In this document: in pieces, positions 8,118 through 61,270 of the stretch | Layout: every line of letters begins with the position of its first letter | Numbering within the stretch: position 1 is the first letter of the stretch | NCBI GenBank assembly: GCA_038087875.1 | Contig: CM075988.1 | Coordinates: 5,146,001-5,210,000 of the forward strand | DNA: 64,000 bases | Direction of reading: 5' to 3' | Source: Malacoraja senta | Taxonomy: Eukaryota | The notes under the pieces: model-generated | The model's database searches: none | What the model was told of the DNA's origin: nothing | Seen by the model: only the letters and a program-made list of their open reading frames with translations | Program-made: the position numbers and the translations under genes

Positions 8118-8413
8118 ATGTTTCCACTAGTGGAAGAGCCTAGGACCAGAGGTCAGAGTCTCAGAATAAAAGGACATACCTTCAGGAAGGAGATGAGGAG
8201 GAATTTCTTGTCAGAGCGTGGTGAATCTGTGGAATTCATTGCCACAGAAGGCTGTGGAGGCCCAGTCATCGGATATTTTTTAAGGCAGATATAGATAGAT
8301 TCTTGATTAGTATGGGTGTCAGGGGTTTTGGGGAGAAGGCAGGTGAATGGGGTTAAGAGGAAAAGGTCAAGAGGGAATGGCAGAATAGACTTGATGGGAT
8401 GAATAACCTAATT
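8118..8413 (+). mobile_element. CR1/HER1 3' fragment split by DIRS copy 1 (resumes 12829-12850)
   Basis: MFPLVEEPRTRGQSL motif; 3' UTR matches the sibling copy at 15490-15862. Confidence 0.85.
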
Positions 8414-9649
8414 TTACTTCGGAGTCACGTGAGTGACTATGTGAAGAAGACCCGTCAGGGTGCATGCGCGTCATTACGTCTGACGCATTGTCGAACGGCA
8501 GCAGGAGGACGGAGCTCCTGCTGCAGGTGAGTAATTACAGCTCCACCAAAGTCGGGGAGACTTTGGAGGAGATAGAAAAAAGTAAAAATTTGTTTCTGTA
8601 TGTTTTACCCCACACATTATAGGAACAAGTAAAAAATTATCAAGGTGCAGGTCTGCTACCAACAAGGAGAGAGAGAGCTGTGGGACGCAGTCTCTGAAAG
8701 GCAGCCTGTCACCTCGGGGGAGTCGCATGCTGGTAGCGGTGCGGCGACAGACTTGGCAAAGTGCCCAGCCGGGTACACAGCCAACGCCAGTCGGGCGGTA
8801 GGCATAAGCCAAGTCTGTCAGGGCTATAAACTCTGCAGAGTCGGGCCACGAGAGTCCCGTCGGGGACAGGATACCGTTCCCCAGCGGTTATCCAAAAGGA
8901 GCAGCTCATACAGGGGCTGCTCCACAGAGACGCTCCAGGAGGAGTTGTGTGGGCGGGAAGCCATAGGGAAGGCTCTGCTGGCAGTGCCTAGGAGAGGCCT
9001 GCTTCATAAAGCCATACTCCAGGAGGAGTAGTGCAGGCGGGAGGCCGTCGGGAAGGCTCCGCCGGCAGTGCCTGGTAGAGGCCTGCTTGAAAGCACCCTC
9101 TTTGCAAGAGGTGAGTGCAGAAGGGCAGATACCCTCTGACCCTGAGTCCGACGACGACTTCCAAAGGGAGGGCAGGCAGCTGCCAGAGCTGACACCGTGT
9201 GCAGCACGGTTTGCCATGTCGTCGGGCGCTGGTGAGCCTCTGGGTGAGGAACTTGCCACCAGCATAAAATATGCTTCACTCTGCCAGCCTGGCACAGTGC
9301 AACCGGCACAACTGTTTGGCGAGGATTTCGCAAAGCAGGTGAAGGAGCTGGAGGAGGAGGCCAAGACGGTGGGCTTGATTAAGCAGCCAGCAGCCACATA
9401 TCCACCAAAGAGTATCCCTATAAGCGAGGAGACTGGTCCGGGCAAGGGACGAGTCCAGCTACGATGCAGCGCAGTTGGCGTTCGGCTGTAGCAGCGCCAG
9501 GGAAGGTGAGATATCCAGCTCGAGGCCGGGGAAGAATGCCAGGGGGTAAGGAGGTAAGTGGGTCTGGTTCTCATGTAGACAGATCTAATGTGATACCTCA
9601 GATATGTTTATATTGAAGGTTATAGAAGGATATCGAATAAAGCTTAATG

Positions 9650-11300
9650 CAAATTCTGATTTACCCATACAACATGTTCCAAAAAGCAGTTTGACTTCAG
9701 TATCACTGAACAATTGGAAGGTCAGTTGGAACTTGCAAGGTTATGTAATAAAGGTGTAATTGCTAAGGCAGTTTACCAAAGCCATCAGTTTGTGTCCAAT
9801 ATCTTTCCCAGACCAAGCAAGGATGGGGGATGCAGAATTATACTGGACCTGAATAGTCTTAACCCTTTTGTAGGGTATAGACATTTTAAGATGGAAATGT
9901 TTGTGAAGGAGATCTTAAAGAAACGGAGTCAGTGTCTGTTCATTTGCAGGATAGAAGATTTAAAATTCATCTGGATGGGGCAATTATTGCAATACAATGC
10001 ATTGCCTAATAGTTTGTCTTCAGCTCCTAGAGGGATTACAAAGTGGTTAAAACCTATTCTAGGCATGATGAGAAGTCGAGGGCATGTGCTCATGGCTTAT
10101 TTAGATAATATCTTGATTGTAGGACAATCAAAGGAAACAGCTGAAGCATCAGTGGCAGTTGGGAAAAAACCATTTTAAATTGGGTTTCATAAACTATCCA
10201 GAGAAATCTAAATTTATACCTGTGACACAAATTGACTAGTTGGGTTCACAATAGACTTAATCAACATGATTGTGATCTTGCCCAGGCAAAAAAGGGTAGA
10301 GCTAATTAAGAGCTGTATCAAGTTAATTGCTGACACACAGCCTTCAATTAGCCAGGTGACAAGTCTGCTGTGGTAATGGCTGGCAGCATTTCCAGCAGTT
10401 CAATATGGCCACTTTATTATCTACAATTACAAAGTTCAAAGGAACAAGCATTGACGATACATTGGGGTCATTATAATAGACCTATGCTTCTATCAATAGA
10501 GGCTGTTGCTGATGTACAATGGTGGATTCAGCATGTGTCCACTAGTAGTTCCAAAGTGTTATTGGACCAAGCTTCCATGATTTGCAGACAGATGTCAGAG
10601 CACTTGGGTAGGGTGCTACTGATACAAGATGCAGCGGTGGAGACAGATGAACATTGCTTCTGCAAACATGGGGATAACCAAGAGTATTTTATGGACTCAA
10701 GGCTTATGGCACAAACTAAACTACTTTGCATGTGCAGTGCAAAATAGACAACACTACAGCAGTTGCTGATATGAATCACATGGGTGGAATAAAATCATTC
10801 TCATGTGACAGGTTGGCAAATACAATTGGACCTGGAGTAGGGATAGAGAGATTTGGATTGGAGCTATCTATCTGCCAGGTAAACTTAATGTAGTACCAGA
10901 TGGCAGGTCACGAAAATTACGTGATAATACAGAGTGGATGTTGAACCAGGATGTGTTCAAGAACATAGTACTTCTATATCGAAGGCCAAAATATGTTTCA
11001 TGGGAACCAGATTCAGGGGCAGTGGCAATTGATGCTTTTTCACTAAATTGGGATGATATGTTTGTGTACATTTTCCCACCATTCTGCCTCATGGTGTTTG
11101 AGAAAATCAAGCAGGGTGCCGCTTCAGAGGTTTTGGTGATACCAAATTGCCCGATTCAACCATGGTTCCTTTTCAGGTTACAGATAGCGATCTAACCTCC
11201 TTTTGATGATTCCAAACAGTAGGAATTTGCTGGAGCATCCAGGAACGCGTTAAGTTCATCTGTTATGTGATCGTATTGATCTGTTAATTTGCAGGTTTGT
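9650..11300 (+). pseudogene. DIRS pol remnant (reverse transcriptase, RNase H, methyltransferase-like domain), frameshifted
   Basis: ORF 9714-10178 has FVSNIFPRPSKDGGCRIILDL, HFKME, LPNSLSSAPR and AYLDNILI (decayed YLDD). ORF 10938-11195 has WEPDSGAVAIDAFSLNW..YIFPPF..PWF, the DIRS MT domain. Many stops and frameshifts. Confidence 0.88.
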
Positions 11301-12278
11301 GAGAATGCCTTACATTGGTCGAGGACTTTCTAGGCCAACGGTGGATATACTCACTGCAGCCTGGAGAAAGAGTACTCAAAAACAGTATATGACTTATGTA
11401 AAAAAAAAATTTTTAAAATGGGGACAATAATGTGTTCAAAAGAATATGCAATATGATATTGTAGTTATTGAAAATGTGTTAGAGTTTTATCTACACTTTA
11501 TTATGATGAGGGTCATAGCTATAGTGCTATCAATACAGCTAGAAGTGCTTTGTCGGCATATCTTGTAATAGGTACACGGACACAAAGTATAGGACCTCAC
11601 CCTCTCATATCTAGGTTGATGAAAGGAATCTTTAATTCCAAAACGCCTAAGCCTAGGTATATGGTATTCTACGATGTAAGCATTGTTCTTAACATGCTTC
11701 GTCATTGGGTCCCTGTCACGTCTATAACTTTGCTGAATTGGCTATGCTAATGGCATTGGTGTCAGTACAGAGAGTGCAGACTTTGCAAAAACTTCAGTTC
11801 GGGAGAATAGAAGTGACTACAGAGAATGTTCTGTTTTATATTTCTGACCTGCTCAAACAAAGCAGGCCAGGTGTGACAGGATTTAAGATTGTGTTCTCAG
11901 CATATCCTACAGCTCCATGTTTATGTGTAAGGACACATTTGTTACACTACATTGAAGCCACAAGGGCTTTAAGACAAGAAGAAACAGGATTATTTGTCAG
12001 TTACAAGAAGCCAACATAAAAGAGTGGCAGTTCAGACTATCTCAAGGTGGTTAAAGCAAGAGTTGGTTCAGGCAGGAATTAATATTTATGTGTTTACATC
12101 TCATTCCACTAGTGCAGTAGCAACATCCGCGGTCAGGGCGATGGACGTTCCCATCGACCATATATTAAAAGCCGCAGGTTGGAAAAATGAACTTGTGTTT
12201 CAGCATTACTACCATCGGCCGATTGCCGATGGAGGGCTGATTGCCACCTCAATATTGAGTGCTGTTGCTATTGTTTAA
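11300..12278 (+). pseudogene. DIRS tyrosine recombinase remnant
   Basis: Fragments HPLISRLMKGIFN..P.PRY, QRVQTL, LLKQSRPG, TISRWLK, SHSTSAVATS (HSTR motif with R lost), AAGW and FQHYYHRP across ORFs 11550-11750, 11705-12019 and 11994-12278. Confidence 0.9.
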
Positions 12279-12487
12279 AGTCTGTTTTCAATACTGTTTC
12301 ATTCTGTTTCGTTTGTTGCCCTTACATTAGAGGGTTTATTGGTTGTTTTATGACCAAAAATAAACTGTTTTGGTTTTGCATGATATGCAATGTCATGTTT
12401 ACAGCATTATTGATGATACTCAGAGTCAATCGATGCAGTGAGAAGCGGGATTTTGATCTGCGCATAAAAATCACAGAGCTTTAAAAT

Positions 12488-12598
12488 CTTCACGTAGTCA
12501 CTCACGTGACTCTGAAGTAAAATAATAAGATTAAACGAGAACTTACCAGTTTGAAGTTTGATCTTTATTTTATGAGGAGTTACGTTGGTGATTACGTG
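12488..12598 (+). repeat. DIRS internal complementary region (ICR) of copy 1
   Basis: 12488-12523 is the reverse complement of the left end (8411-8446). 12521-12598 is the reverse complement of the right end (12751-12828). The two halves overlap at AAT. Confidence 0.93.
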
Positions 12599-13264
12599 CC
12601 CGCCACGCCCAACCCTCTCTCATAAAAAAAGGTCATAATGGTAGTTCTCATGTTGATCATCTTAAATATGTTACTTCAATTATGGTGTTGTCTGTGATTT
12701 CATACCGCTGCTTTGAAGATTGACGCGCATGCGCCCTGACGGGTCTTCTTCACGTAATCACCAACGTAACTCCTCATAAAATAAAGATCAAACTTCAAAC
12801 TGGTAAGTTCTCGTTTAATCTTACTATTCTGCTCCTATCACTTATGAACTACCATTTCCACCTTGAAGCGCCGGTTCAGTCTCAACATTGCCCAAGAGAA
12901 TAACTCTTGTGATTCTGAACATCACTACTGACTTGCACAGATTTTAATTACAGTGATAAGTAATTATGGAGTCAAATGGCAATCGAGACCTGAAATTCTT
13001 ATTGGGAAGTTTAGCTCATCAAAGAGACCTTCTTTTGACCTATACTTGTTAGAAATCCGACTCTCATAGGAAAACAAAAATGGTCCAAGCACCTGAAGCC
13101 ATGGTGTTTCTTGGTTTAAAAATGACCAAAAAAACAACTTTGATATGACATTATTATCTTAATTAATTAGCTGAATAACTATGCTCCCACAAAACAGACA
13201 GACTCTCAATCCCAGATATCACACAATGGGCGGTGGGTATATGGAACGAACACCCAGAGGAGGG

Positions 13265-24251: not shown

Positions 24252-24886
24252 AGGGCAGCAGAGTAGCGCAGCAATGAAACTGCTGCCTCAGCACCAGCGA
24301 CCCGGTTTAATCCTGACCTCCGGAGCTGTCTGTGTGGAGTTTGCAAGTTATCACTTTGACCATGTGGGTTTCCTGTGAGTGCTCCGGTTTCCTCCCATAT
24401 CCCAAAGATGTGCTGGATTGTGGGTTAATTGGCCTCTAGTTTTTAGTTTAGTTTAGTTTAGTTTAGAGATACAGCGCGGAAACAGGCCCTTCGGTCCACC
24501 TAGTCCGCACTGACCAGCGATCCCTGCATACTAACACTGTCCTACACACACTCGGGACAATTTCACATTTATATTCAAGCCAATTAAACTACAAACCTGT
24601 ACATCTTTGGACTGTGGGAGGAAATTGAAGAAGTCGGTGAAAACCCATGCAGGTCACGGGGAGAACATGCAAATTCCGTGCAGACAGTACCCGTAGTCAG
24701 GATCGAACTCTGGTCTCGGACCTGGCGCTGTAAGGCAGTAGCTCTACCGAAGCGCCACTGTACCATACTGGTGTGTAGGGATGGATGAGAAAGTGGGATA
24801 ACATAGAGCTAGTGAGAACGGTTGGTTATTGGTCGGTGTGGACTTGGTGGGTCAAACGGCCTATTTCCAAGTTGTATCTCTAAATT
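24252..24886 (+). mobile_element. HE1 SINE (+) interrupted by a second HE1 (-, 24437-24765) and by DIRS copy 2 in its tail
   Basis: Head 24252-24435; body resumes at 24770; tail remnant AAACTAAA at 29253-29260. Confidence 0.8.
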
Positions 24887-26384
24887 TTACTTCGGAGTCA
24901 CGTGAGTGACTACGTGAAGAGCCCGTCCAGCACGCATGCGCGACATTAGTGTTCACGCAGTGCAACAGCGACGAACGGGAGTACAGGCGCTCCCGCTACA
25001 CGTCGGTGGAAAATAAACAGCGGACCATCAGGTAAGTTTTACACTGAGGTCGTAATCAGCAAGCTGTGCTCTGCTCTGTATTCCAGGGGACTGTGAAAAT
25101 GAGCAGCACGGCAAAGGAAGAAAACCGCCCCCCGTTTGACTCCAACAGAACGGGAGTGTTCCATCAGTGGGGGGCGAGAGGCGGCACCTGGACCGCACAT
25201 GCTGCGGCACACCCTCATCGAGACCGAGCTGAGCCCAGTCCCGCTAGCGCAGCCTGACCAACAGCAGCGGGCTGGAGGCAAATCAAGGCACAAAACATAC
25301 CGGCCGGTTATGTCTGACTCCGATGAGGAGGCTCTCCGCCTTAGAGCGGCAGAGCTAGCTGCCTGAGCCGCATGGAAAGGCTCATGGAGCAAATGCTCCA
25401 GCGAGACTTGCTTCGGGAGCTGGAGCAGTCTCGCCAAGGGAACTCAGGCACTCCCACATCAGTGCTCTACAAGGCACTGGCCATCGCTTTCCCCTCAAAG
25501 CAGGGCAGCGTTGGCGACCAGGGCTGGGCTGGTCAGGAACAGGGGTCATTGGCTGAAGATGTCGGGAGTACGCTTGGGGTACAGGATCAGGAAGAGCTGC
25601 TGGGTGTGGAGATTCGCTACGTGGTTACACCACGAGCAGGGCGGCCGTTGCAGCCAAAACTGGCGGCCAGCATTAACCACCTGTCCCTCAAACCCCTACA
25701 AGACTAGGTACTTAATGAGGCACTAGAGCTGGAAAACTGCAGTTCGCTCAATGTACCGGCTGTTAACAGTCAAATCTGGGGGGGGGGGTATGTGGGACAG
25801 AGTATCCGAAACCAGGAGCTAAAATCCTCAAGCTCCTGACGACAGGGATAACAGCCTATGCTCGTTCCGTGGATGGGGTGGATATGACCACAAACCAGCA
25901 AGACACTCTGGCTCAGCTGTGCAACACCCAATATGAGATAAACAACCTCCGCAAGGAGAGAATAAGACCTGCCCTCAATCCCAGGTTTGCAGGACTGTGT
26001 AAAACACCGGCCTCAGAGCCGCAGATCCTGTTATTTGGAAGGGCAAGTGAAAGACCTGGAGGAGAGTCCAAAGCATTTTGCCTCATGAGGGCAGGCCCCG
26101 GAACGAGCAGACCCACACAAAAACCAGACGGCAGTACCCCACCGCGTCCACCAGTCGAGGACAAATTTATGGAACTGGTGAAAGCTCGGGGTCCGCATAT
26201 TATCCCCGAAAGCCTTTTTAGGCCAGGCCCCATGGAAAATGCACCACCCCCAATCAACGGTACATCCAGCAGTACTACGACGGATGAACAAACGGAAGAA
26301 GGAACACTACCATAACTATGGAGGTAGGAGGGTATGGTTCCTACCAGCATGTAAAAATGGGGGAACTGTACTAACAGGGGGGAG

Positions 26385-27277
26385 ATTTTACTTCGGAGTC
26401 ACGTGAGTGACTACGTGAAGACCCCGTCCAGCACGCATGCGCGACATTAGCGTTCACGCAGTGCAACAGCGACGACCGGGAGTACAGGCGCTCCCGCTAC
26501 ACGTCGGTGAAAACTAAACAGCGGACCATCAGGTAAGTCTTACTCTGAGGTCGTAATCCGCAAGCTGTGCTCTGCTCTGCTCTCTATTCCAGAGGAACTG
26601 GGAACAGGAGCAGCACGGCAAAGGAAGAAAACCGCCCCCCGTTCGACTCCAACAGAACGGGAGTGTTCCATCAGTGGGGGGCGAGAGGCGGCACCTGGAC
26701 CGCATATGCGGCGGTCCACCCTCATCGAGACCGAGCCGAGCCCAGTACCGCTAGCGCAGCCTGATGAGCGGCAGCGGGCTGGAGGAAAAGTTTAAACAAA
26801 CAAACAAACAAACAAACCGGCCGGTTATGTCTGACTCCGATGAGGAGGGTCCGCCTTAGAGCGGCAGAGCTAGCCGCCTGAGCCGAATGAAAAGGCTCAT
26901 GGAGCAACTGCTCCAGCGAGACTTGCTTCAGGAGCTACAGCAGTCTCGCCAGGGGGATCAGGCACTCCCACAGCAGTGCTCTATAAATGCACTGGCCATC
27001 GCTTTCCCCTCAAAGCAGGGCAGCGTTGGCGACCAGGGCTGGGCTGGTCAGGAAGAGGGGTCATTGGCTGAAGATGTCGGGAGTACGCTTGGGGTACAGG
27101 ATCAGGAAGAGCTGCTGGGTGTGGAGATTCGCTACGTGGTTTCACCACGAGCAGGGCGGCCATTGGAGCCAAAACTGGCGGCCAGCATCAACCACCTGTC
27201 CCTCAAACCCCTACAAGACAGGTACTTAATGAGGCACTAGAGCTGGAAAACTGCAGTTCGCTCAATGTACCGGCTGT
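26385..27277 (+). mobile_element. DIRS1-type retrotransposon (copy 2b), 5' part, nested in copy 2 and running into the gap
   Basis: A second ATTTTACTTCGGAGTCACGTGAGTGAC left end, followed by a diverged copy of 24884-25762 with several substitutions and indels (e.g. GAAGACCCCG, (AAAC)n expansion). Confidence 0.85.
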
Positions 27278-27477
27278 NNNNNNNNNNNNNNNNNNNNNNN
27301 NNNNNNNNNNNNNNNNNNNNNNNNNNNNNNNNNNNNNNNNNNNNNNNNNNNNNNNNNNNNNNNNNNNNNNNNNNNNNNNNNNNNNNNNNNNNNNNNNNNN
27401 NNNNNNNNNNNNNNNNNNNNNNNNNNNNNNNNNNNNNNNNNNNNNNNNNNNNNNNNNNNNNNNNNNNNNNNNNNNNN
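27278..27477. other. Assembly gap (200 N)
   Basis: Run of N; the round size suggests a placeholder length. Confidence 0.99.
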
Positions 27478-29526
27478 AAATCACCACGTACCAATGTATG
27501 TCCCTTGGGAACCACACCCTGAGGCAGCAGCGATAGATGCATTCGCGCTGAACTGGGGGACCTATTTCATCTATGCTTTTCCCCCCTTCTGCCTTAATCT
27601 GTAGGGTACTACGCAAAATACAGATGGACTCTGCTTCAGGTATTTTGATTGTACCAACTGGCCTACACAGCCATGGTTCCCAGTGGTCCTCGACATGGTC
27701 ATCGAAACTCCTCTGACCTTTCCCAGTATCCCAGACCTATTGACGCACCCTGTATCAGGCATAAGTCATCCATGCCATGACAAAGTTAACCTACTGGGTT
27801 GCAGATTATCAAAAGACCACTGCTGGGACTGGGGTGTCTGACAGGACCATCAACATGATGACACCGTATGTCCACCAGGAAACAATACCTATCGAGCATC
27901 AGGACGTGGGAAAGATACTGCTCGACTACTGGGACAACTTACTCATCTGCAAATATAACCAATGTACTGGAGTTCCTGGGGGGCCTTCACCATAATGAAG
28001 GATTGAGCTACAGTGCCATCAATATTGCCAGACGTGCGCTGTCAGCCTACTTAAAACAGGTGCCAGGACAACAGGCCATAGGGTCTCAACCGCTGGTGAT
28101 CAAACTCATGAGGAGTATCGTCAACTCCAACCCTCTTAGACCTATGTATACCCAAATCTGGGAAGTCAGTGTGGTCCTGACATACCTAAGGGGATGGTCC
28201 CCAGCCAGGTCTCACCCTGGAAAAGCTAACCCTGAAAACGGTCATGCTGATGCCACTAGTCTCAGCACAAAGAGTCCAGTCCCTCCACTTACTGCGACTG
28301 GACAACATGGTTATAACACCAGACCGGGTCTCATTGACCATTCAGGAGCTGCTAAGCAGAGCAAGCCAGGAACTTGAGTCCTAGTTATGGATTTCCAGGC
28401 ATACCCACCTGACTTACGGTTGTGTGTCATGACTCACTTATTCACTTACATCAACACAACAAGAAATTCTCGAGGGAGAGGAAAAAATATATATATATAT
28501 ATATATATAAAAGCCTTATGGGTCAGCCACAAGAAACCTCATGGTTGGGTGTCGAGCCAAACCATCTCGAGATGGCTCAAGCAGGTACTGGGAGCTGCTG
28601 GAGTAGATACTGATGTATATACATCTCACTCCACCAGGGCAGCATCCACATCGGCGGCTAAAAGAATGAAAATGGAGAAAACGTTCCAAACGTTCTACCA
28701 CAAGCCGCTAGCAGAACCTGTGTTATTTGCAGAAAGTTTTAAAAATATATAATTTAAGCCCGGGGGAGCATTTTGTCTTTTGTTATTGTTTAATAGATAC
28801 CATTATTGTTTACAAACAGATTATGGTTGATTACGATAACATACTTCCTCCCTTGAATGACTTCGGCAGCGAGTGAAGTATGAACTGTTACACGGTTTGA
28901 AATCACAGAGCTTTAAAATCTTCACGTAGTCACTCACGTGACTCCGAAGTAAAATAGAAAGATTAAACGAGACTTACCAGTTTGAAGTTTGATCTGTATT
29001 TTATGAGGAGTTACGATTGAGGGATTACGTGCCCTCCGCTCCCACCCTCAATTATAGATCAACTGGTATCTTAGTTCTCCTTTTCTTTACTATGTTTATT
29101 TCAATTATTGTGTTTCCTGTGATTCCACACCGCTGCTTTGAAGATGTCGCGCATGCGTGCTGGACGGGCTCTTCACGTAATCCCTCATCGTAACTCCTCA
29201 TAAAATACAGATCAAACTTCAAACTGGTAAGTTCTCGTTTAATCTTACTATTAAACTAAAAAGAAATGAGCTAGGTGTGGAATGGCTGCGGAGTTCAAGG
29301 CCTGGTAACTACCATCAGAGGCAAGTATCTCAGTCATAAACATGGATCGCTCTTCACGTCTAAGATGAAAAAAATGCCAAGGAATTGGAAGTTATCAGTG
29401 TGATAAAGGATCCCAACCCGAAACATCGCTTGTCCATTCCCTCCACAGATGCTGCCTCACCTGATGAGTTACTCCAGTACTTTTGCTGAAGATTCCAGCA
29501 TCTGCACTTTATTTTGTCTTGGTTTG

Positions 29527-40520: not shown

Positions 40521-40635
40521 ATGTATAGAATTTATATATATTAAATATAATGTTATATATTTATAAAGTATATGTATATAATATTTTATAGCTATATGAA
40601 ATGTAAAATTCTACATATACATATAAATATGTAGG

Positions 40636-40823
40636 TAGACACAAAATGCTGGAGCAAATCAGCGGGACAGGCAGCATCTCTGGAGAGAAGGAATGGGCAA
40701 GGGTTTCGACCCGAAACGTCACCATTCCTTATCTCCAGAGTTGTTGCCTGTCCGGCATTTACTCCAGCATTTTGTGTCTACCTTCGATTTAAACCAGCAT
40801 CTGCAATTCTTTCCTACACATCC
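40636..40823. mobile_element. Fold-back PLE mini-insertion (type A) with 14-bp TSD
   Basis: Palindromic arms; TSD TATAAATATGTAGG at 40622-40635 and 40824-40837. Confidence 0.85.
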
Positions 40824-41403: not shown

Positions 41404-42205
41404 AGGAGGGAACTGCAGATGCTGGTTTAAACCGAAGATAGACACAAAATGCTGGAGTAACACAGCGGGACAGGCTGCATCCCTGGAGAGAAGGAATTGG
41501 TGACGTTTCGGGTCAAGACCCTTCTTCAGACTTGTCAGTCGAAAGCGAAACGAGAGATATAGACAGTAATGTGGAGCGATATAGAACAACTGAATGGAAG
41601 ATATGCAAAAATGTAACAATGATAAAGGAAACAGTCTATTGTTAGCTGTGTGCTAGGTGAGAACGGGAACCTGGTGCGGTTTGGGTGGGGGAAGGATAGA
41701 GAGAAAGGGCGTGCAGGGGTTACTTGAAGTTAGAGAAATCAATATATTCATACCACTGGGTTGTAAGCTGCCCAAGCGAAATATGTGATGCTCTTCCTCC
41801 AAATTTGCGATTAGCCTCACTCTGACAATGGAGGAGGCCTTGGACAGAAAGGTCAGTGTGGGAATGGTAAGGGGAGTTAAAGTAGACAAAAATGCTGGAG
41901 AAACTCAGAGGGTGAGGCAGTATCTATGGAGCGAAGGAAATAGGCAACGTTTTGGGATGAAACCCTTCCTCAGACTTGAGTCTGAAGAAGGGTTTCGACC
42001 CGAAATGTTGCCTATTTCCTTCGCTCCATAGATGCTGCCTCACCCGCTGAGTTTCTCCAGCATTTTTGTCTACCTTCGATTTTCCAGCATCTGCAGTTCC
42101 TTCTTGAACAGGGTAGTTACCTGAACTCCCGGTTGACAAGCAGTTAAAGTGTTTGTCAACCGGGAAATCAGGTAGGTCCAGGCGGACTGAGCAAAGGTGT
42201 TCAGA
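41404..42205 (-). mobile_element. Neptune PLE 3' fragment containing a nested type-B fold-back mini-insertion (41882-42110)
   Basis: EEEHHIFRLGSLQPSGMN on the minus strand; 3' repeat with tail extension; the PLE sequence resumes at ~42140. Confidence 0.8.
41502..41529 (-). ncRNA. Minimal hammerhead motif (PLE remnant, type A)
   Basis: Minus strand CTGAAGAAGGGTCTTGACCCGAAACGTC. Confidence 0.65.
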
Positions 42206-46500: not shown

Positions 46501-47138
46501 CCAGCATCTGCAGTTCCTTCCTACTTGCTTGGCCTTGTCCCAGTCCCACCTCTCTTCAAGCTTTCTTCCCCCTTACTACAATCAGTTTGAAGAAGTGACC
46601 CACCCAAAATATCACCTATCCATGCTTGACCCAACGTTTCGATAGTCACAAAATACACTTATCCATGGCAAGAACATTATCCCTCAGCTAAGGACATTAA
46701 ACGTGCACACATAACTCCAAATTAGATCTCACCAAGACTCAATATTGTTACAGCAATTCGTCCTTGATCCTGTGCTTGAATCAACCAAGAGTGATAAACC
46801 TCATACCATTTTCCTTCCTCTCTGGGAAGTTATTTGTGTTCTTTTTCTTTGTACCCAATTATAATTTCCCTGGAGATAGACACAAAAAGCTGGGGCGGAT
46901 CTCAACGGGTCAAGCAGCATCTCTGGAGAAAAGGAATCGGTGACATTTCGGGTCGAGATTCTTTTTCACACTCCGAGTCTGAAGGAGGGCCTCGACCCGA
47001 AACGTCACCTACTGTATGTCTTTTCTCCAGAAATGCTGTCTGACCCGCAGATTTACTCCTGCATTTTGTGTCTACCTTTGGTGTAAACTAGCATCTGCAG
47101 TTCCTTCCAACACATTTTGTCGGGCCCACAGTTTGTCC

Positions 47139-50100
47139 TTTTTTGTAAACCAGCACCTGCAGTTCTTGCTTATGCGTTGTCCAAGTAATTAATAATTCTG
47201 ATTGCAGCTTCTTTAACTCTCCCCACTTCTGTGGTTAAACTGAAAGCTCTGTTTAAACATAAGGAACTGCAGGTGCTAGTTTACAAAAAACAACACAAAA
47301 TGCTGGATTGACTCAGCAGGTCAGGCAGCATCTCTGGATAGGTCTGCATTTATTGGTTTATCCCCACATTCCTTTTGTACAACAATGTAACATTTGCAAT
47401 CTACTGGTCCTCCTGCATCAAGTGCATCTTTACATTAGAATTACATTACAGGTAGAGGGTGGAAACAAGCCCTTTGGCCCACCGAGTCCACTCTGACCAG
47501 CAATCACCCCGTACACTAGCACTACCCTACACACTAGGGACAATTTACAATTTTACGAAAACCAATCAATCTACAAACCTGCGAGTCTTTGGAGTACGGG
47601 AGGAAACGTGAGCACCCAGAGAAAACCCACATGGTCACGGGGAGAACGTACAGACTCTGTACAAACAGCACCCATAATCAGGATCAAACCCAGGTCTCTT
47701 GCACTGTAAGTTGCTACTCATTCAAGTCTATAAACGTTCGGAAGATTGAAGTTGTTACATTTACCTCTATTCCCAAAACAACCTTGAATCCATTCTGTAC
47801 CAAGTGATTTATCCAGTGCAGTGTAAATAGCCTTTCATATACCTTTGCTTTATCAATTTCTGGCCCATGGTCACGGGGAGAACGTACAGACTCTAGTAAG
47901 ATTAAATGAGAACTTACCAGTTTGAAGTTTGATCTGTATTTTATGAGGAGTTACGATGAGGGATTACGTGAAGAAGCCCGCCAGACGCATGCGCGTCAAT
48001 CTTCAAAGCAGCGGTGTGAAAACACAGATAACAGTTGATGAACTGAGTATAGTAAGATTCGAGAAAGTAGAACTATCAGCTGATCCTTATGAGAGAGGGT
48101 TGGGAGCGGCGGGCACGTAATGGTCCTCATAAAATAAAGATCAAACTTCAAACTGGTAAGTTCTCGTTTAATCTTACTATTAACCTACAATACTGTTCAT
48201 CTTTGGAGTGTGGGAGGAAACCGGAGCACCCGGGGAAAACCCACGCAGGTCATAGGGAGAACGTACAAACTGCGTACAGACAGCACCCGCAGTCAGGATC
48301 GAACCCGGTTCTCTGTTGCTCTAAGGCAGCAGCTTTATCGTTGCACCACCATGCCGCCAGAGGTATATTTTTTTATAGTGGATCTCTAGAGAATATCAGG
48401 GATATTGTTTTGGATGGGTAGATGTGAAATATGGCTAATTAACTTCTCCAAAGTCGGGAGAAGTAAATATGTGAATTTTCTTTTTGTTTCAAGCCTACAA
48501 TTGAACTGGGTTATGCTAGTAATGATTGTAAGCTAAATGCTTCTTTTATTACTCGATTATTGACCAAGTCTGGTTCAATGCTCAATACCAGGTAAGATAC
48601 GACCTGTACTCTTGCTGATACCATTACGTACTGCTGCACAAGATTATTCTTGAAACGACTGAGAATGTTTATTGCTTTATTGATGATGTTCCTTCTTCTA
48701 CCAATCTATATAAACAGAAGAAACAACAACATGTTGTACTGCAATACTTTAAAGCCCTTAACATATCCTAAGGTGCTTCCAAATGGGCCAGAAATTGATA
48801 AAGCAAAGGTATATGAAAGGCTATTTACACTGCACTGGATAAATCACTTGGTACAGAATGGATTCAAGGTTGTTTTGGGAATAGAGGTAAATGTAACAAC
48901 TTCAATCTTCCGAACGTTTATAGACTTGAATGAGTAGCAACTTACAGTGCAAGAGACCTGGGTTTGATCCTGATTATGGGTGCTGTTTGTACAGAGTCTG
49001 TACGTTCTCCCCGTGACCATGTGGGTTTTCTCTGGGTGCTCACGTTTCCTCCCGTACTCCAAAGACTCGCAGGTTTGTAGATTGATTGGTTTTGGTAAAA
49101 TTGTAAATTGTCCCTAGTGTGTACGGTAGTGCTAGTGTACGGGGTGATTGCTGGTCAGAGTGGACTCGGTGGGCCAAAGGGCTTGTTTCCACCCTCTACC
49201 TGTAATGTAATTCTAATGTAAAGATGCACTTGATGCAGGAGGACCAGTAGATTGCAAATGTTACATCGTTGTACTAAAGGAATGTGGGGAGAAACCAATA
49301 AATGCAGACCTATCCAGAGATGCTGCCTGACCTGCTGTCAATCCAGCATTTTGTGTTGTTTTTTGTAAACTAGCACTTTCAGTTCCTTGTGTTTAAACAG
49401 AGCTTTCAGTTTAACCACAGAAGTGGGGAGAGTTAAAGAAGCTGCAATCAGAATTATTAATTACTTGGACAACGCATAAGCAAGAACTGCAGGTGCTAGT
49501 TTACAAAAAACAACACAAAATGCTGGATTGACTCAGCAGGTCAGGCAGCATCTCTGGATAGGTCTGCATTTCTTGGTTTCTCCCCACATTCCTTTAGTAC
49601 AACGATGTAACATTTGCAATCTACTGGTCCTCCTGCATCAAGTGCATCTTTACATTAGAATTACATTACAGGTAGAGGGTGGAAACAAGCCCTTTGGCCC
49701 ACCGAGTCCACTGTGACCAGCAATCACCCCGTACACTAGCACTACCCTACACACTAGGGACAATTTACAATTTTACCAAAACCAATCAATCTACAAACCT
49801 GCGAGTCTTTGGAGTACGGGAGGAAACGTGAGCACCCAGAGAAAACCCACATGGTCACGGGGAGAACGTACAGACTCTGTACAAACAGCACCCATAATCA
49901 GGATCAAACCCAGGTCTCTTGCACTGTAAGTTGCTACTCATTCAAGTCTATAAACGTTCGGAAAATTTAAGTTGTTACATTTACCTCTATTCCCAAAACA
50001 ACCTTGAATCCATTCTGTACCAAGTGATTTATCCAGTGCAGTGTAAATAGCCTTTCATATACCTTTGCTTTATCAATTTCTGGCCCATTTGGAAGCACCT

Positions 50101-50979
50101 TAGGATATGTTAAGGGCTTTAAAGTATTGCAGTACAACATGTTGTTGTTTCTTCTGTTTATATAGATTGGTAGAAGAAGGAACATCATCAATAAAGCAAT
50201 AAACATTCTCAGTCGTTTCAAGAATAATCTTGTGCAGCAGTATGTAATGGTATCAGCAAGAGTACAGGTCGTATCTTACCTGGTATTGAGCATTGAACCA
50301 GACTTGGTCAATAATCGAGTTATAAAAGAAGCATTTAGCTTACAATCATTACTAGCATAACCCAGTTCAATTGTAGGCTTGAAACAAAAAGAAAATTCAC
50401 ATATTTACTTCTCCCGACTTTGGAGAAGTTAATTAGCCATATTTCACATCTACCCATCCAAAACAATATCCCTGATATTCTGTAGAGATCCACTATAAAA
50501 AAATATACCACTGGCGGCATGGTGGCGCAACGATAAAGCTGCTGCCTTAGAGCAACAGAGAACCGGGTTCGATCCTGACTGCGGGTGCTGTCTGTACGTA
50601 GTTTGTACGTTCTCCCTATGACCTGCGTGGGTTTTCCCCGGGTGCTCCGGTTTCCTCCCACACTCCAAAGATGAACAGTATTGTAGGTTAATAGTAAGAT
50701 TAAATGAGAACTTACCAGTTTGAAGTTTGATCTTTATTTTATGAGGAGTTACGATGAGGGATTACGTGAAGAAGCCCGCCAGACGCATGCGCGTCAATCT
50801 TCAAAGCAGCGGTGTGAAAACACAGATAACAGTTGATGAACTGAGTATAGTAAGATTCGAGAAAGTAGAACTATCAGCTGATCCTTATGAGAGAGGGTTG
50901 AGAACGGCGGGCACGTAATGGTCCTCATAAAATAAAGATCAAACTTCGAACTGGTAAGTTCTCGTTTAGTCTTACTATT
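47139..50979. repeat. Direct-inverted-direct local triplication
   Basis: 47264-47868 = 49484-50088 (direct); 47895-48181 = 50693-50979 (direct); ~48124-49497 is the reverse complement of the same segment plus 47155-47263. The identical 72-aa and 84/95-aa ORFs on opposite strands in the ORF track confirm this. Confidence 0.92.
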
Positions 50980-53900
50980 TTACTTCGGAGTCACGTGAGT
51001 GACTACGTGAAGATTTCATAGCTCTGTGATTTCATGCCGTGGACACGAGTCCATGCGTCACTCACTGCATCAATTGACCAAGGATGAGTGAACATTAATC
51101 ATGCATTTAGACATGACATAGATATAGACATGCTGATGCTTTTTATGAACAAATAATAACAATAGTAACCCCGGTCATCCGGGAGGAAACTATAGACAGA
51201 ACTTAAAATAGAGTTGGCAAATATCCCCGGTCTGGCAATGGTTTGCATAAATGTATGGAAAGATCGTTCATTTGACCACCCTGCAGACGCTAGGATGTGG
51301 TACTGCAGAATGTCCATACCCCTGCCGCTGAAACTGTTGCAGCCCTGGTGGAGTGAGATTTAAAATGTCAGAGTCACTCCTGCACAAGGCAGAACCCATT
51401 TAACCATCTGGAGATGGTCTGTACTGATACCTTCTTATGTTTATGTAACTAACAAACATTGCTAGATCAGTGCCCCTAAGGCTCTAAGTGACCTAACGTA
51501 TAGTAGTAGATGACCACACACAACCAAAGGTCCATGGGGTATGCCCAAATTCTAGTTAGAGACCTGATGCCCCTGGTCTGCTCTGCTTGAATAAGCCATG
51601 AACATAAATAGTTATTTGCCTGCAGATGTAACCATGCTGTCCAGTCGCAATGACTGGACACGTTGCGCTGAACCAGTGCCATGAGCATAACCACTTGTAA
51701 GTGAGTTTGACCAAGGACAGGGATGAAGCCGGAGCCCACCGGCGAAGCGGCGTCAGAACAATGTTAACATCCCATATCTCTGCGTACCTGGGCCTGGGAG
51801 GTTTGAGTTGAAGATACCCTTCTTGAATCTGGATATCAGAGGGTGAGACCCAACAGAGTAGGTCCCGCTCCTTGCAGAAATATGATGAGAAGGCACGTTT
51901 GGCACAGTTAATGGAACTATAACTAATTTTATGTCAAAGACCCATTCGAAAATGAACTCCCAGTCATCAGTTATCCGTGCCGTATATATGTCAACGAATT
52001 GATTTATCATGCATTGGATGGTTGCCCGAGTCACGGGCTGAACCAGCTATACTATGTTAGAATTAACCATATAAGGTTCTATTTCATTCCCAACATCAGC
52101 GGGAACCATGGCTGCATAGGACAGTCACTACAAAAATGCCTGAAGCGGGATTACTGAATTTAACAAGACCCGACTGGTGAGGAAAAATGGAGGAAGACAA
52201 ACCTCCCCAGTGTAGCAAGAGTACATCTATCGCCACTGCCATGCCACCTATATATATATATTTCTCTACTGGTGATTGAGCCTGGATGCAACATCTCGAT
52301 CTTAATGTTCCATAAGTCACCAAGTCATTAAATACTTAGTGATCCAACATCCATTCAGTTTTGACATTGATTTTACATGATGATACACCAGTGCCAAATG
52401 AGGTTAGGTAAACCATCCCCGGATACTTTGACTTGATTGCACCCATGTGATTAACTTATGACACCACCAAAGTGTATCATCTTGAACTTGAACATGCTGA
52501 TTATGCATATTCGCACAACCCTTGACCCATAGAATGCACCTGGTGTCTAAAGGCAGTTGATACCATAGAACTGAAGAATAGGTAACATGCAAATCCCATC
52601 ACCTCCGTAACTAGAGATGGTATAAGTAATTTCACATCTTTAAGCACTCGCATCAGTTTGTAATATAACTGAAGATTTACTGACGAAAAGTTAGTGGTGC
52701 AATGCTGAATACTGTTCGTCCACCATAGTGACTTTCATGGAGGTAAATAACGAGACCTACTTACCAGCGTCTCTAACTCCAGGTCCCTTACCTTTGCTAG
52801 AGTTCCAGCGAAATTTCATTCGCAGACTCTGACCATGTTGTCATTTCCATTAGATCGCTGATGCTGCTGGCCAACTTCTCTTGTAGTGGCTAGTCCGTCA
52901 CCGACGGAGCAGCAATTTTAGGGGCAAAGCACAGTTTTCCCTCATGCGATTGTCATGCATTATGCATTAAGCATGGGACCCCGGCACAGTCATATTTGGG
53001 TTCCTGTTTGGAGTCAATCCATACTAACCTTAGACACTCTTTTAGAGTGGGAGTAATTGCACCTGAACCAGGTGTCACCATCCGTCTCCTCAATTTGTCT
53101 GTGCATGCCTCTGTACCAAGCATGTTTTGCGACTCCATCTCCCATGGTCTTATAATATATATGGCTCCATCTTCATCCTTTATATATCCAAATGGGAGGA
53201 CATGCCCTGAACCAGGGGCTGCCTCAGGCATGTGTGCATGTATTTTAGCACCATCTCCATCACTGCGCTCAACCGAGTGGAAGGAATGGCAACCCTGAAC
53301 CAGGCGTTGCTTCAGGCACATGTGCATACTCCTGTAGCACTCTCTCTACCATTCCGTCATTTGAGTGGGAGGAAATTTGCAACCCTGAACCAGGAGCTGC
53401 TGCCTGACATGCCTTTAGATGGAGCGTTCTTTGACTGCGACGAATCGCAATCTTGTCTGACATAGATGCCCAAGACTTGGCACTCACTCTGAGTTGGGGT
53501 TGTCAGGTTGCTTCCTTCAGCAGCCGCCAGGACTAGCTGTGCAAATCGATGCTCTGTTGGTATCCTCATTCCCCAAACAGGCTGCACGTGCTAGTGACTC
53601 CGAATCCTGCTCCTTCCCGATGCCAATGCAGTATACAGGGAAGGACTGGAGCGCCTCTGGCCCCCGTACATCAGGCATAGTGGGAGAAATGTTGGAACAA
53701 AAAACCTGCCAGTTATTTGCCATGTGCAAAGACGTTTACATGAATGAAGATGCCCATCCCAGTTAAATCAGAGATTTGATTACTTTATTGATATGAATAA
53801 TCGGCGTTTTGGGGAAGAATCTTCCACAGTCCCGTAATGAGCGGAATTACCATGACGCCACCATGTATAGCTCGCACAGGTGACTGATAGGTATAGCTCA

Positions 53901-54998
53901 ACAAGGCTTTCCAAGCCAGGGATCTAGACCGCCATGGCAGGTCCGATTCTACTACACAATTTGTTGGTGTAAGCGATAATAAAATTCCTCTCTTGGTTAT
54001 GATAGTCACAACGTGACCTAGTGGCAACTATATAAATGCCCACCCTGTATAGCCATACTTTAAAAGAATACACTATAACTAGACCACACAACCCATTTTA
54101 TGGAAACCCAGACTCACGTACCTGCATAGATACCAGTGGTCTTGAGGTAAGCCCAAAGGCCCCTGATGTAGGTCCCATTCCCGTCCTTGATTTGGAGGGT
54201 AGAACTGCTGAGGTGCGTGGATCGTATATTTTCCCTGAAGGCCAGCTTGGGCCTAGCCCTGAAGACCTCTGCCCACAGAATCAGTTCCCTGGCTGCTACC
54301 AGCTTTAGAAAAAAGACTACTGCCATAGGAGAGGTAAGGGTGATGTAGCCGTTAGTAATGTGAGGGGAACTCTGCCCCCCCCCCCCCCAGGTATACTGGA
54401 ATCTAATGTAGAATGTGCCCTGGACACACTTCCGGGGTTGGGGTCAGACACACACTGACCCCTTGCACTCCTCTCCACTGAGGGGATATTAGTAAGCAGC
54501 CCTGATAACAGGTGCTGCCGTCGTCCCCTGAGGACCTGCGCTGATATGGCCCTATCCGTGGACCATATCAGGATGTGTAGAACGTCCGAGAACGTACCGT
54601 AATGACGGAGGAGAACCCTCCTTGCCGGCCTCGTCCAGCCCAGGCCTCTCTAACTCCGTATAGTTGCCCTCTTTGGGCTGCCGAAGTCGGGGTCGCTGAC
54701 CGTACTGTCAGCGAGTCGTGTAGTAAACCATAGCCGGCATCACCCGCGGTCTAAAGTACCGCGCGGCCCGATTTATCAAAATCCTCGGGAGTCGCTGACC
54801 GTACTGTCAGCGACTCAAGCAGCAACCCCAACGGCCACCCGCTACCCGCATACCGCGGTCCGTAGCCGGCATCCCCGCGGTCCAATTGGTTTCCCCGCGG
54901 TCCGACCGGGTTACTGTATGCAATATTCCACAGGAAACTCTGCGAGAAGAGTTTCCTGCAACAAAGGACAACCTAAAAACGTGACTCCGAAGTAAAAT
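50690..54998 (-). mobile_element. DIRS1-type retrotransposon (copy 3), strongly decayed; left ITR deleted and RT core apparently missing
   Basis: Right end and ICR at 50690-51013; only ~20 bp of the left end remain at 54979-54998. YR remnants (HPLISRFKKGIFN, LASAGWSNERSFHTF) and an RNase H LQTDAS motif near 52655. The empty site rebuilds an HE1 body: TTGTAGGTT-AAT-TGGCTTGGTAAAATTG. Confidence 0.9.
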
Positions 54999-58637: not shown

Positions 58638-58811
58638 AAGATAGACACAAAAAAATGGATTAACTCAGCGGGACAGGCAGCATCTCGGGAGCGAAGGAAT
58701 GGGTGACGTTTCAGGTCGAGACCCTTCTCCAGAGATGCTGCCTGTCCCGCTGAGTTACTCCAGCTTTTTGTGTCTATCTTCAGTTTAAACCAGCACCTGC
58801 AGTTCCTTCCT
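58638..58811. mobile_element. Fold-back PLE mini-insertion (type A)
   Basis: Inverted arms; flanks AACA(A/G)AAAAAATAA resemble a TSD. Confidence 0.78.
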
Positions 58812-60210: not shown

Positions 60211-60390
60211 ACAATAAAACACTCTTGACTCTTGACTCTTTTTGTGGATCAGGGACAGAGATGGGCAAAAGACAACCGGCAGGTGTGAACAATGTGCGGT
60301 AGTGGGTCTGAATAAAACACGAGTTGGACACAACAGGAATAACGCATTCAATTCTATAGCAAGAATGTGCAGAGAAGATTATTTACGTGG

Positions 60391-60621
60391 GTACACAACA
60401 ATGCTGGAGAAATTCAGCAGGTGCAGCAGCATCTATGGAGCGAAGGAAATAGGCAACGTTTCGGGCCGAAACCCTTCTTCAGACGTTTCGGGCCGAAACC
60501 CTTCTTTCGGCCCGAAACGTTGCCTATTTCCTTCGCTCCATAGATGCTGCTGCACCCGCTGAGTTTCTCCAGCATTTTTGTGTACCTTCGATTTTCCAGC
60601 ATCTGCAGTTCCTTCTTTAAC
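60391..60621. mobile_element. Fold-back PLE mini-insertion (type B) with reiterated hammerhead core
   Basis: Palindromic arms; centre has tandem and inverted GGGTTTCGGCCCGAAACGT units; flanks AGATTATT(T)TACGTGG duplicated. Confidence 0.85.
60455..60482 (-). ncRNA. Minimal hammerhead motif (PLE type B, UUCG-capped helix II)
   Basis: Minus strand CTGAAGAAGGGT(TTCG)GCCCGAAACGTT. Confidence 0.65.
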
Positions 60622-60949: not shown

Positions 60950-61270
60950 AGGGCGGCACCTTGGCGCAGGGGTAGAGTTGCTGCCTCACAGCGCCAGAGA
61001 CCCGGGTTCGATCCTGACTACGGGTGCTGTCTGTACGGAGTTTGTACGTTCTCCTCGTGACCTGCGTGGGTTTTCTCCAGGATCTCCGTTTTCCCCCCAC
61101 ACTCCAAAGACGTACAGGTTTGTAGGCTAATTGGCTTGATATAAATGTAAATTGTTCCTTGCGTGTGTAGGATAGTGTAAGTGTGCTGGGATCGCTGGTC
61201 GGCGCAGACCCGGTGGGCCGAAGCGCCTGTTTCCATGCTGTATCTCTAAACTGAACTAAACTAAACTAAA
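60950..61270 (+). mobile_element. HE1/V-SINE-type SINE, full length and little decayed
   Basis: GGGCGGCAC..TGGCGCAGGGG A-box, GGTTCGATCC B-box, CpGs retained, (CTAAA)n tail. Confidence 0.9.

Follow-up and report, generated by a model that had tools for sequence, protein, structure and literature searches.

Inverted triplication at the right end of a DIRS1-like element in Malacoraja senta, and the right end/ICR pair as a recurrent fold-back site

Introduction

How does host DNA beside a transposon come to lie in three copies, the middle one reversed, with both turning points inside short inverted repeats, and does the transposon end itself favor such an outcome? This question is raised by a locus in the genome of Malacoraja senta, situated in a window of 64,000 nucleotides (GCA_038087875.1, contig CM075988.1, positions 5,146,001 to 5,210,000) whose SINE and Penelope content is reminiscent of cartilaginous fish. 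At this locus one of the turns coincides with the right end of a DIRS1-like element and its ICR, which is described as the circle junction of DIRS elements and as a requirement for their transposition, pairing of the ICR with the termini being the step that it serves (PMC7192593). A sequence-only reading of the window had classed the arrangement as an ODIRA-type inverted triplication formed by fork template switching, and had proposed that every DIRS right end is a built-in fold-back site capable of amplifying flanking host DNA. Both proposals are considered below, together with the evidence from the whole genome and from other samples.

Layout of the Inverted Triplication

Self-BLAST and alignments bear out the order X-Y-filler-D1, Z'-Y'-X', Y-Z-D3, with a reversed middle copy, that had been read from the letters. 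Positions 47139-47868 on the plus strand match 49510-48783 on the minus strand at 98.5% identity, 47258-47868 match 49475-50088 at 98.2%, and 47894-48181 match 50692-50979 at 98.3%; the palindrome spans 48124-50747. In window coordinates, the parts and the neighboring element are as follows.

47139-47165 (+): outer arm of the proximal pair, likely the end of a Penelope-type terminal repeat (alignment; the arm lies near GIY-YIG-like ORF remnants)
47166-47263 (+): X, the 98-bp spacer of the proximal pair (alignment)
47264-47868 (+): Y copy 1, starting with the inner arm 47264-47290; 4 private substitutions (alignment)
47869-47894 (+): templated filler, source 47633-47658, in place of Z (601 bp) (self-BLAST, alignment)
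47894-48181 (+): D copy 1 (D1), comprising the DIRS right end starting at the final core base, the spacer, the right-end half of the ICR, and the ATT core at 48179-48181 (alignment)
48182-49510 (-): inverted copy Z'-Y'-X' plus hybrid arm, 1,329 bp (alignment, contigs of other samples)
49484-49510 (+): proximal turn, hybrid arm; switch within 49484-49497 (alignment; contigs of samples X15 and X16 end at 49497)
49484-50689 (+): Y copy 3 (49484-50088, 4 private substitutions) and Z (50089-50689) (alignment, outgroup contig)
50690-50979 (+): D copy 3 (D3), the fold-back pair, with the right end at 50690-50747 and the right-end half of the ICR at 50922-50979 (self-BLAST, alignment, folding)
50690-54998 (-): decayed DIRS1-like element in a SINE, with an ATT core at both ends (self-BLAST, alignment)

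Y-Z-D3 is the ancestral order, since Y and Z are joined in an outgroup contig and the SINE that was interrupted goes on in Z. For Y, an inverted copy lies between two direct copies, with two switch junctions and a single copy age; a third junction deletes Z from copy 1. At this third junction the filler match (47866-47894 with 47630-47658) is exact over 29 bp, with microhomology of 3 nt on the left and 1 nt on the right, and the filler/D1 boundary falls within the 3-bp DIRS core, retaining at most one core base. The endpoint of the Z deletion lies within 1-2 nt of the core, a placement with a chance probability of about 0.5%.

A genome search with unique Y/Z sequence returned only the three places in the window and found no second assembled allele in the assembly. 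None of the 10 open frames of Y and Z matched Pfam, and the triplicated stretch is apparently non-coding.

The DIRS Element and the Inverted Pairs at the Two Turns

The element at 50690-54998 is one of three DIRS-like elements within the window. Its ICR (50922-51013) consists of the right end, ATT and the left start and is complementary to both termini, and its two flanks rejoin like an intact copy of the SINE at 60952-61252. Among the DIRS copies checked, the same trinucleotide ATT is found at 56 of 69 right flanks and 23 of 25 left flanks. The ITRs measure about 35 bp in the window relatives E1 and E2, and the left ITR of the 50690-54998 copy is cut after 18 nt. The ORFs of this copy are decayed: Pfam gave no integrase match in it and no RT match in any of 12 frames, and integrase-family matches below the cut-off occurred in two of the 12 frames (E 9e-5 and 4e-4), both in the window relatives. 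Rfam returned only hairpin-shaped miRNA matches below threshold, and no hammerhead.

Because the ICR is reported to be essential for transposition (PMC7192593), a long, near-perfect inverted pair with its arms 150-175 nt apart is to be expected in every DIRS1-like right end. In the window, this distal pair (50690-50747 and 50922-50979) has 58-bp arms with three mismatches and a 174-bp spacer, and folds with -80.5 kcal/mol (z -14.9). The proximal pair (47139-47165 and 47264-47290) has 27-bp arms with one mismatch around a 98-bp spacer, and its folding z is -7.5. Both turns lie where the earlier reading had placed them, and both spacers are retained once each, as the loops of interrupted palindromes. 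The distal switch can be narrowed to 48167-48181 because an ICR-type G is retained at 48166, where both right-end copies have A.

The usual right-end/ICR pair of the DIRS family measures about 77-82 bp, and both D1 and D3 carry a private shortening, of about 12 bp; since it is common to both, they stem from one insertion. An independent DIRS insertion as the source of D1 was considered and is ruled out by this private deletion. The proximal arm sequence occurs 266-359 nt after the end of a GIY-YIG-like ORF in five of 15 remnants (two of the five being one duplicated locus), and the Pfam GIY-YIG match beside the proximal-arm repeat is weak (E = 0.07), so that a Penelope origin of this pair can be called likely from its sequence context.

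Age and Reality of the Locus

Over the 605 bp of Y, private substitutions number four in copy 1, three plus one 2-bp deletion in copy 2, and four in copy 3, a star-like pattern of about 0.6% each; X' has one private change. The copies therefore differ at a few sites, as had been noted, and because each of the three Y copies has private substitutions they indicate one old event and no read chimera. All copies taken together show 23 substitutions (11 transitions) and one indel, which resembles the spectrum against a sister species (57:51) and is unlike that of read errors, the differences being substitutions and not homopolymer indels.

Samples X15 and X16 are near-identical to the source (0 differences over 229 bp of flank), and X1 and X17 are outgroups, two sister species about 5% away. 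Derived alleles of copy 2 occur in X15 and X16 with 0 differences over 151 and 172 bp, X15 also has a derived allele of copy 3 (48550), and the contigs of both samples stop at 49497, the branch point that the triplication predicts. Contig depth, a weak hint, is higher over Y and Z than over the flank in X15 and X16, and level over flank, X-Y and Z in X1 and X17.

An assembly artefact, produced by fold-back chimeric reads or by the merging of two haplotypes, is very improbable. Long palindromes are hard to assemble, and the arms of another long event, L108, are 99.84% identical to each other. In addition, no contig of X15 or X16 bridges the filler/D1 or ICR/Z' junction, positions 47848-47863 are covered by a Y-Z contig alone, and at 99% identity the contigs leave much of the D spacer without cover; Logan contigs, however, lose rare branches adjoining high-copy repeats, so that a missing junction is no proof of absence. 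Copy-1 private alleles were found in none of the other samples. Against an artefact stand the copy-2 and copy-3 alleles in X15 and X16, and the short fold-backs elsewhere in the genome, which, with their clean returns, fillers and LINE insertions, are not products of chimera formation. A merge of two haplotypes is excluded because two alleles cannot yield three distinct Y haplotypes. The inverted triplication is thus almost certainly real and old, and the other samples confirm it in part.

D1 and D3 have a private deletion and a CpG change in common and differ from each other at five of 288 sites, and their nearest paralogue is only 94% identical, from which it follows that the triplication took place much later than the DIRS insertion. 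This bears on the idea that duplication took place in the course of DIRS integration, before the cDNA ends had come apart from the ICR. Such pairing is given as the very purpose of the ICR (PMC7192593) and could account for some of the short events described below, but the LINE-linked events among them also postdate the insertion, and as a general explanation this origin is hardly credible. For the window locus it is excluded by the changes that D1 and D3 share.

Fold-Back at DIRS Right Ends Across the Genome

In the 1.94-Gb assembly, the pattern of a normal ICR has a baseline of 9,407 matches. Two patterns for an ICR that is not followed by the left start gave 24 matches (all examined) and 76 matches (69 examined, seven already seen), or 89 distinct. 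Thirteen of these 89 aberrant ICRs, the window locus included, run into the reverse complement of the flank of their own element, with the following tract lengths.

Long tracts: window 1,329 nt; L108, at C1:332.34 Mb, ~3,060 nt
Tracts above 60 nt: L159 84 nt; L032 63 nt; L039 62 nt; L100 61 nt
Shorter tracts: L053 53 nt; L040 50 nt; L136 35 nt; L050 25 nt; L134 10 nt
Borderline tracts: L101 7 nt; L034 5 nt

Without the two borderline events the count is 11. Three further candidates had been dropped, L098 as a tandem element and L119 and L135 for tracts of 6-7 nt with a low score. Applied to 69 real flanks, the two patterns jointly pass 57, which corresponds to about 16 outward events after correction and to a fold-back rate of about 0.15-0.2% of DIRS copies, or about one copy in 600, in exact-pattern counts that miss older copies. 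Background inverted pairs of at least 25 bp number three in 97.9 kb of non-DIRS DNA (28 loci and the window), and a rough expectation for exact register at 9,407 sites is about 0.04, versus 10 observed.

The mirror pattern, a right end followed by the left start, gave 84 matches (79 + 5 classed), among them four inward fold-backs (L055, L065, L078 and L184) of 52-87 nt that share private variants with their template. Of the remainder, 46 of the 84 are head-to-tail pairs, most of visibly different subfamilies, eight are whole elements at the ICR core of another, and the rest are other or ambiguous arrangements. A script had flagged 16 inward fold-backs, 12 of which were dropped since the sequence past the right end belongs to a different element: eight of these 12 are whole DIRS elements inserted at the ICR core of another (five independent events), and the other four are L063, L190, L203 and L204.

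The distant left-end/ICR pair (37 bp, about 4 kb apart) serves as the contrast. None of its five matches folds back, with a baseline of 8,156 and a pattern that passes 17 of 25 flanks. Compared with the matched right-end pattern this gives a Fisher p of 0.017-0.034, in a comparison in which distance is confounded with arm length, the control pair being also shorter (37 versus about 80 bp). The DIRS right end is a recurrent, though not necessarily a DIRS-specific, fold-back site, as the junction test proposed with the earlier reading indicates through 13 outward and four inward events, with none at the distant left-end pair. That such sites "amplify flanking host DNA" was overstated: flank is indeed copied, but 11 of the 13 tracts measure 5-84 nt and only two reach kilobases, in a small fraction of copies. 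Repeated capture of loose 3' ends by the right-end/ICR pair would be a structural side effect of a whole transposon order. Its practical impact looks modest, since it concerns about one copy in 600 and mostly tens of bases, and an effect on a gene was not seen.

How the Events End

Six events (L034, L039, L040, L134, L032 and L108) rejoin the ICR 3-24 nt ahead of the end of the core. The first four return through 2-4 nt of microhomology; in L032 the join is a filler that has the arm as its template, and in L108 it is a filler of 4 nt. The return point of L039 coincides with the core, and most returns lie 5-66 nt off it; core-exact junctions are limited to L039 and the filler/D1 junction of the window. 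In L159 and L108 the core is a variant one, taken from the right end. L050 and L100 re-enter the element interior past a deletion, and L159 enters another insertion, with no return in 20 kb.

L053, L101 and L136 are LINE insertions with the fold-back at their 5' junction, followed by a return to the ICR. L101 has an ORF of 1,271 aa and a target duplication of 12-13 bp, and the apparent target duplications of L053 and L136 are 39 bp and about 65 bp. In L053 and L136 the right-end allele is found in the first copy and the ICR allele in the copy after the return, as would follow from extension of an ICR-internal 3' end along the right end, an argument that depends on one hypermutable CpG. For these three events the ends of LINE insertions were the starting point, and fork switching is not evident.

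Proposed Mechanism

We consider it probable that the inverted triplication of about 1.6 kb began with a free 3' end in the ICR that folded onto the DIRS right end and was extended through the flank, with a second switch at the Penelope pair. In the first step, which would be common to all events, a 3' end that lies free within the ICR arm or shortly beyond it pairs with the right end, over a distance of 150-175 nt, and is extended into the flank. At the window locus, the new strand would have copied X-Y-Z-D, turned at D and run back over 1.33 kb; at the 27-bp Penelope pair it would have annealed to the original template again and gone on in the forward direction, to give X-Y-Z-D-Z'-Y'-X'-Y-Z-D. 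End-joining repair with templated filler, later or concurrent, may then have removed the first Z. Any loose 3' end in the ICR could act as a trigger in general, whether from a stalled or regressed fork, a break or the nick of a LINE insertion. Most tracts would halt after 5-84 nt and rejoin the end of the ICR by microhomology, and kilobase tracts would need a processive restart. Small snap-back insertions and full inverted triplications could in this way come from one first step, and the more than 9,000 near-identical substrates provide a natural experiment on germline template switching, which records how long the tracts are, where they return and what sets them off.

The first step may be either an SD-MMEJ snap-back or the leading-to-lagging switch of ODIRA, which sequence alone cannot tell apart. 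An inverted primer repeat, a short templated tract and a microhomology return are combined in L034, L039, L040 and L134 and, with filler, in L032; the 1.3-kb window tract is the exception.

ODIRA in the strict sense, in which leading-to-lagging switches at both pairs free an extrachromosomal piece with hairpin caps, to be replicated as an inverted dimer and brought back into the chromosome by homologous recombination, is an unlikely account of the locus. Its geometry does fit, as had been claimed: both turns lie in pre-existing interrupted inverted repeats in the outward orientation required, the spacers are retained, and secondary deletions of an arm are an expected fate of such palindromes (PMC10766186). 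Described as invariant, however, are two features, an amplicon that contains an origin and arms no more than about 100 bp apart (PMC10766183), and the distal spacer of 174 bp exceeds this distance, spacers in yeast being below 100 bp and mostly 40-80 bp (PMC10766183). A second hairpin turn occurs at the window locus only, 12 of the 13 outward events being without one, and three events start at LINE insertion junctions. The locus is accordingly not filed as ODIRA, although it works like ODIRA or DUP-TRP/INV-DUP, because the spacing is too wide and an origin within the 1.6-kb amplicon would be hypothetical.

Another account starts from the DIRS tyrosine recombinase, provided by relatives that are still active. 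It would nick the ATT core in the chromosome, at the ICR or at the right end, and its abortive cleavage would leave both the 3' end that folds back and the break that removed Z. The geometry of tyrosine recombinases places the cleavage edge at the core boundary, and the filler/D1 junction, with at most one core base retained, lies at that edge; the return of L039 falls on the core. The ICR moreover reproduces the circle junction exactly and serves as a target, given the whole DIRS elements at the ICR core of another (eight of 12 loci) and the head-to-tail pairs (46 of 84 mirror-pattern matches), most of differing subfamilies. Exchange at the core should nevertheless occur alike at both element ends, and no fold-back was found at the left end, though its core is identical; most returns lie off the core, LINE insertion is an evident source of nicks in three events, and the filler/D1 site TT/AATA also resembles the LINE endonuclease motif TT/AAAA (PMC13526784). 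We regard this account as quite unlikely for the locus. In its wider form, that recombinase from active DIRS copies nicks resident ICRs and ends and the mirror pair then folds back to copy host DNA over up to kilobases at thousands of loci, it is likewise unlikely; if true, the transposon would itself encode a site-directed means of amplifying DNA in inverted form.

Two observations concern the third junction. A deletion of Z that ends in the 3-bp core is unpredicted by template switching alone and suits abortive recombinase cleavage. The same site, as TT/AATA, comes near to the LINE endonuclease motif TT/AAAA (PMC13526784).

Relation to Known Systems

Template switching at inverted repeats, repeat-mediated inverted triplication and snap-back insertion are already known. 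The open-access literature as searched yielded no link of DIRS elements with inverted duplication, palindromes or fold-back through the ICR/right-end pair, in agreement with the earlier reading, which knew of no such DIRS effect; within that literature, the DIRS right-end/ICR pair as a fold-back substrate appears to be new.

The ODIRA events described at yeast SUL1 share with the window locus the inverted middle copy, the turns in short interrupted inverted repeats, the retained spacer and the later loss of a palindrome arm (PMC10766183; PMC10766186), which is the expected fate (PMC10766186). Their arms measure 2-14 bp, versus 27 and 58 bp of transposon origin in the window; unlike them, the window locus has a distal spacer of 174 bp, an amplicon of 1.6 kb and no known origin, and DIRS sites mostly give tracts of 5-84 nt (PMC10766183; PMC10766186). 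DUP-TRP/INV-DUP rearrangements, including those at inverted Alu pairs at 17p13.3, likewise involve two switches and a repeat-derived inverted pair at the junction; as described, however, their pairs are chance juxtapositions or LCRs of at least 10 kb, whereas the DIRS pair is obligatory for each element and present in more than 9,000 copies (PMC11293582).

In snap-back SD-MMEJ, too, synthesis is primed by a 3' end that pairs with an inverted repeat on the same strand, a short tract is made, and the end rejoins by new microhomology, but the primer repeats are reported as 2-9 nt near the break, as opposed to about 80 bp across a loop of 150-175 nt and tracts of up to kilobases in DIRS elements (PMC5728401). 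The inverted triplications of FEN1/rad27 mutants are similar as small DUP/INV/DUP products of replication error, although they average 148/160/148 bp with 30-bp spacers, and the abstract of that report draws no link to transposon ends (PMC13334657).

For Dictyostelium DIRS-1, the borders of duplications are explained in the published accounts as a scar or by unequal crossing-over, with no role given there to the ICR/right-end pair and with the target of self-insertion left undefined (PMC2665215; PMC2643946). As in the present case, DIRS sequence is placed at a duplication: DIRS-1 lies at the border of the inverted duplication on AX4 chromosome 2, flanks the duplication of Ax2(Wee), and inserts into other DIRS copies (PMC2665215; PMC2643946).

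DIRS mini-elements

Twenty-one distinct DIRS mini-elements of 243-265 bp, in which several subfamilies are represented, occur at unrelated sites in the Malacoraja senta assembly (G000; L-numbers denote its DIRS-related loci). They are laid out as left start, terminal repeat, spacer and right end, and most are flanked by ATT at both ends.

DIRS mini-elements
L033, L041, L043, L045, L046, L051, L052, L054, L095, L096, L102
L106, L110, L129, L130, L137, L143, L149, L155, L156, L164

As judged from sequence, this would fit a minicircle excised around the ICR, the internal region reading right end, ATT core and left start, between direct repeats of ~10 bp and subsequently integrated by the recombinase. 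No obvious prior description of such elements emerged among the papers listed by our literature search.

DIRS self-insertion

The ATT core of one element's ICR is the insertion site of another DIRS at eight loci, which represent five independent events, and DIRS lie head-to-tail at element ends in 46 of the 84 genome matches to the mirror pattern (right end, then left start).

DIRS in the ICR core of other DIRS
L227-L230, L234-L237
Mirror-pattern matches, head-to-tail DIRS among them
L056-L084, L179-L223

These ICR-core and element-end insertions supply a defined target for DIRS self-insertion, a point called unresolved for Dictyostelium in PMC2665215.

Fold-backs and other rearrangements

An outward fold-back of 3.06 kb on contig C1 (L166+L167, G000:C1:332.344-332.351 Mb) has 99.84% arm identity, re-enters the ICR through a 4-nt filler 8 nt before the core end, and carries a flipped spacer. 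Such similarity of the arms would indicate either a young event or homogenisation.

A right-end and ICR-interior fragment fused to one common sequence (L194, L195, L214, L219, L220, L241) is scattered over at least six places, and is possibly an inward fold-back later spread inside another repeat. Separately, right end and spacer (~230 bp) are directly tandem-duplicated from the core onward at L015 (G000:C2:144910753-144911315), and at L077, L081 and L181 a palindromic spacer separates right end and ICR, with right-end-type sequence on either side. Micro-duplications of 3-41 nt lie at the ICR core in L042/L114, L049, L098, L146 and L147, a position that ascertainment favours.

Further repeats in the window

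8411-12828, +, DIRS copy
24884-29252, +, DIRS copy, left part repeated internally, 200-N gap at 27278-27477
40633-40783, 41879-42076, 46874-47077, 58638-58780, 60390-60586, palindromic Penelope-type terminal-repeat pairs, 140-210 bp

The Penelope-type pairs are natural controls for fold-back rates.
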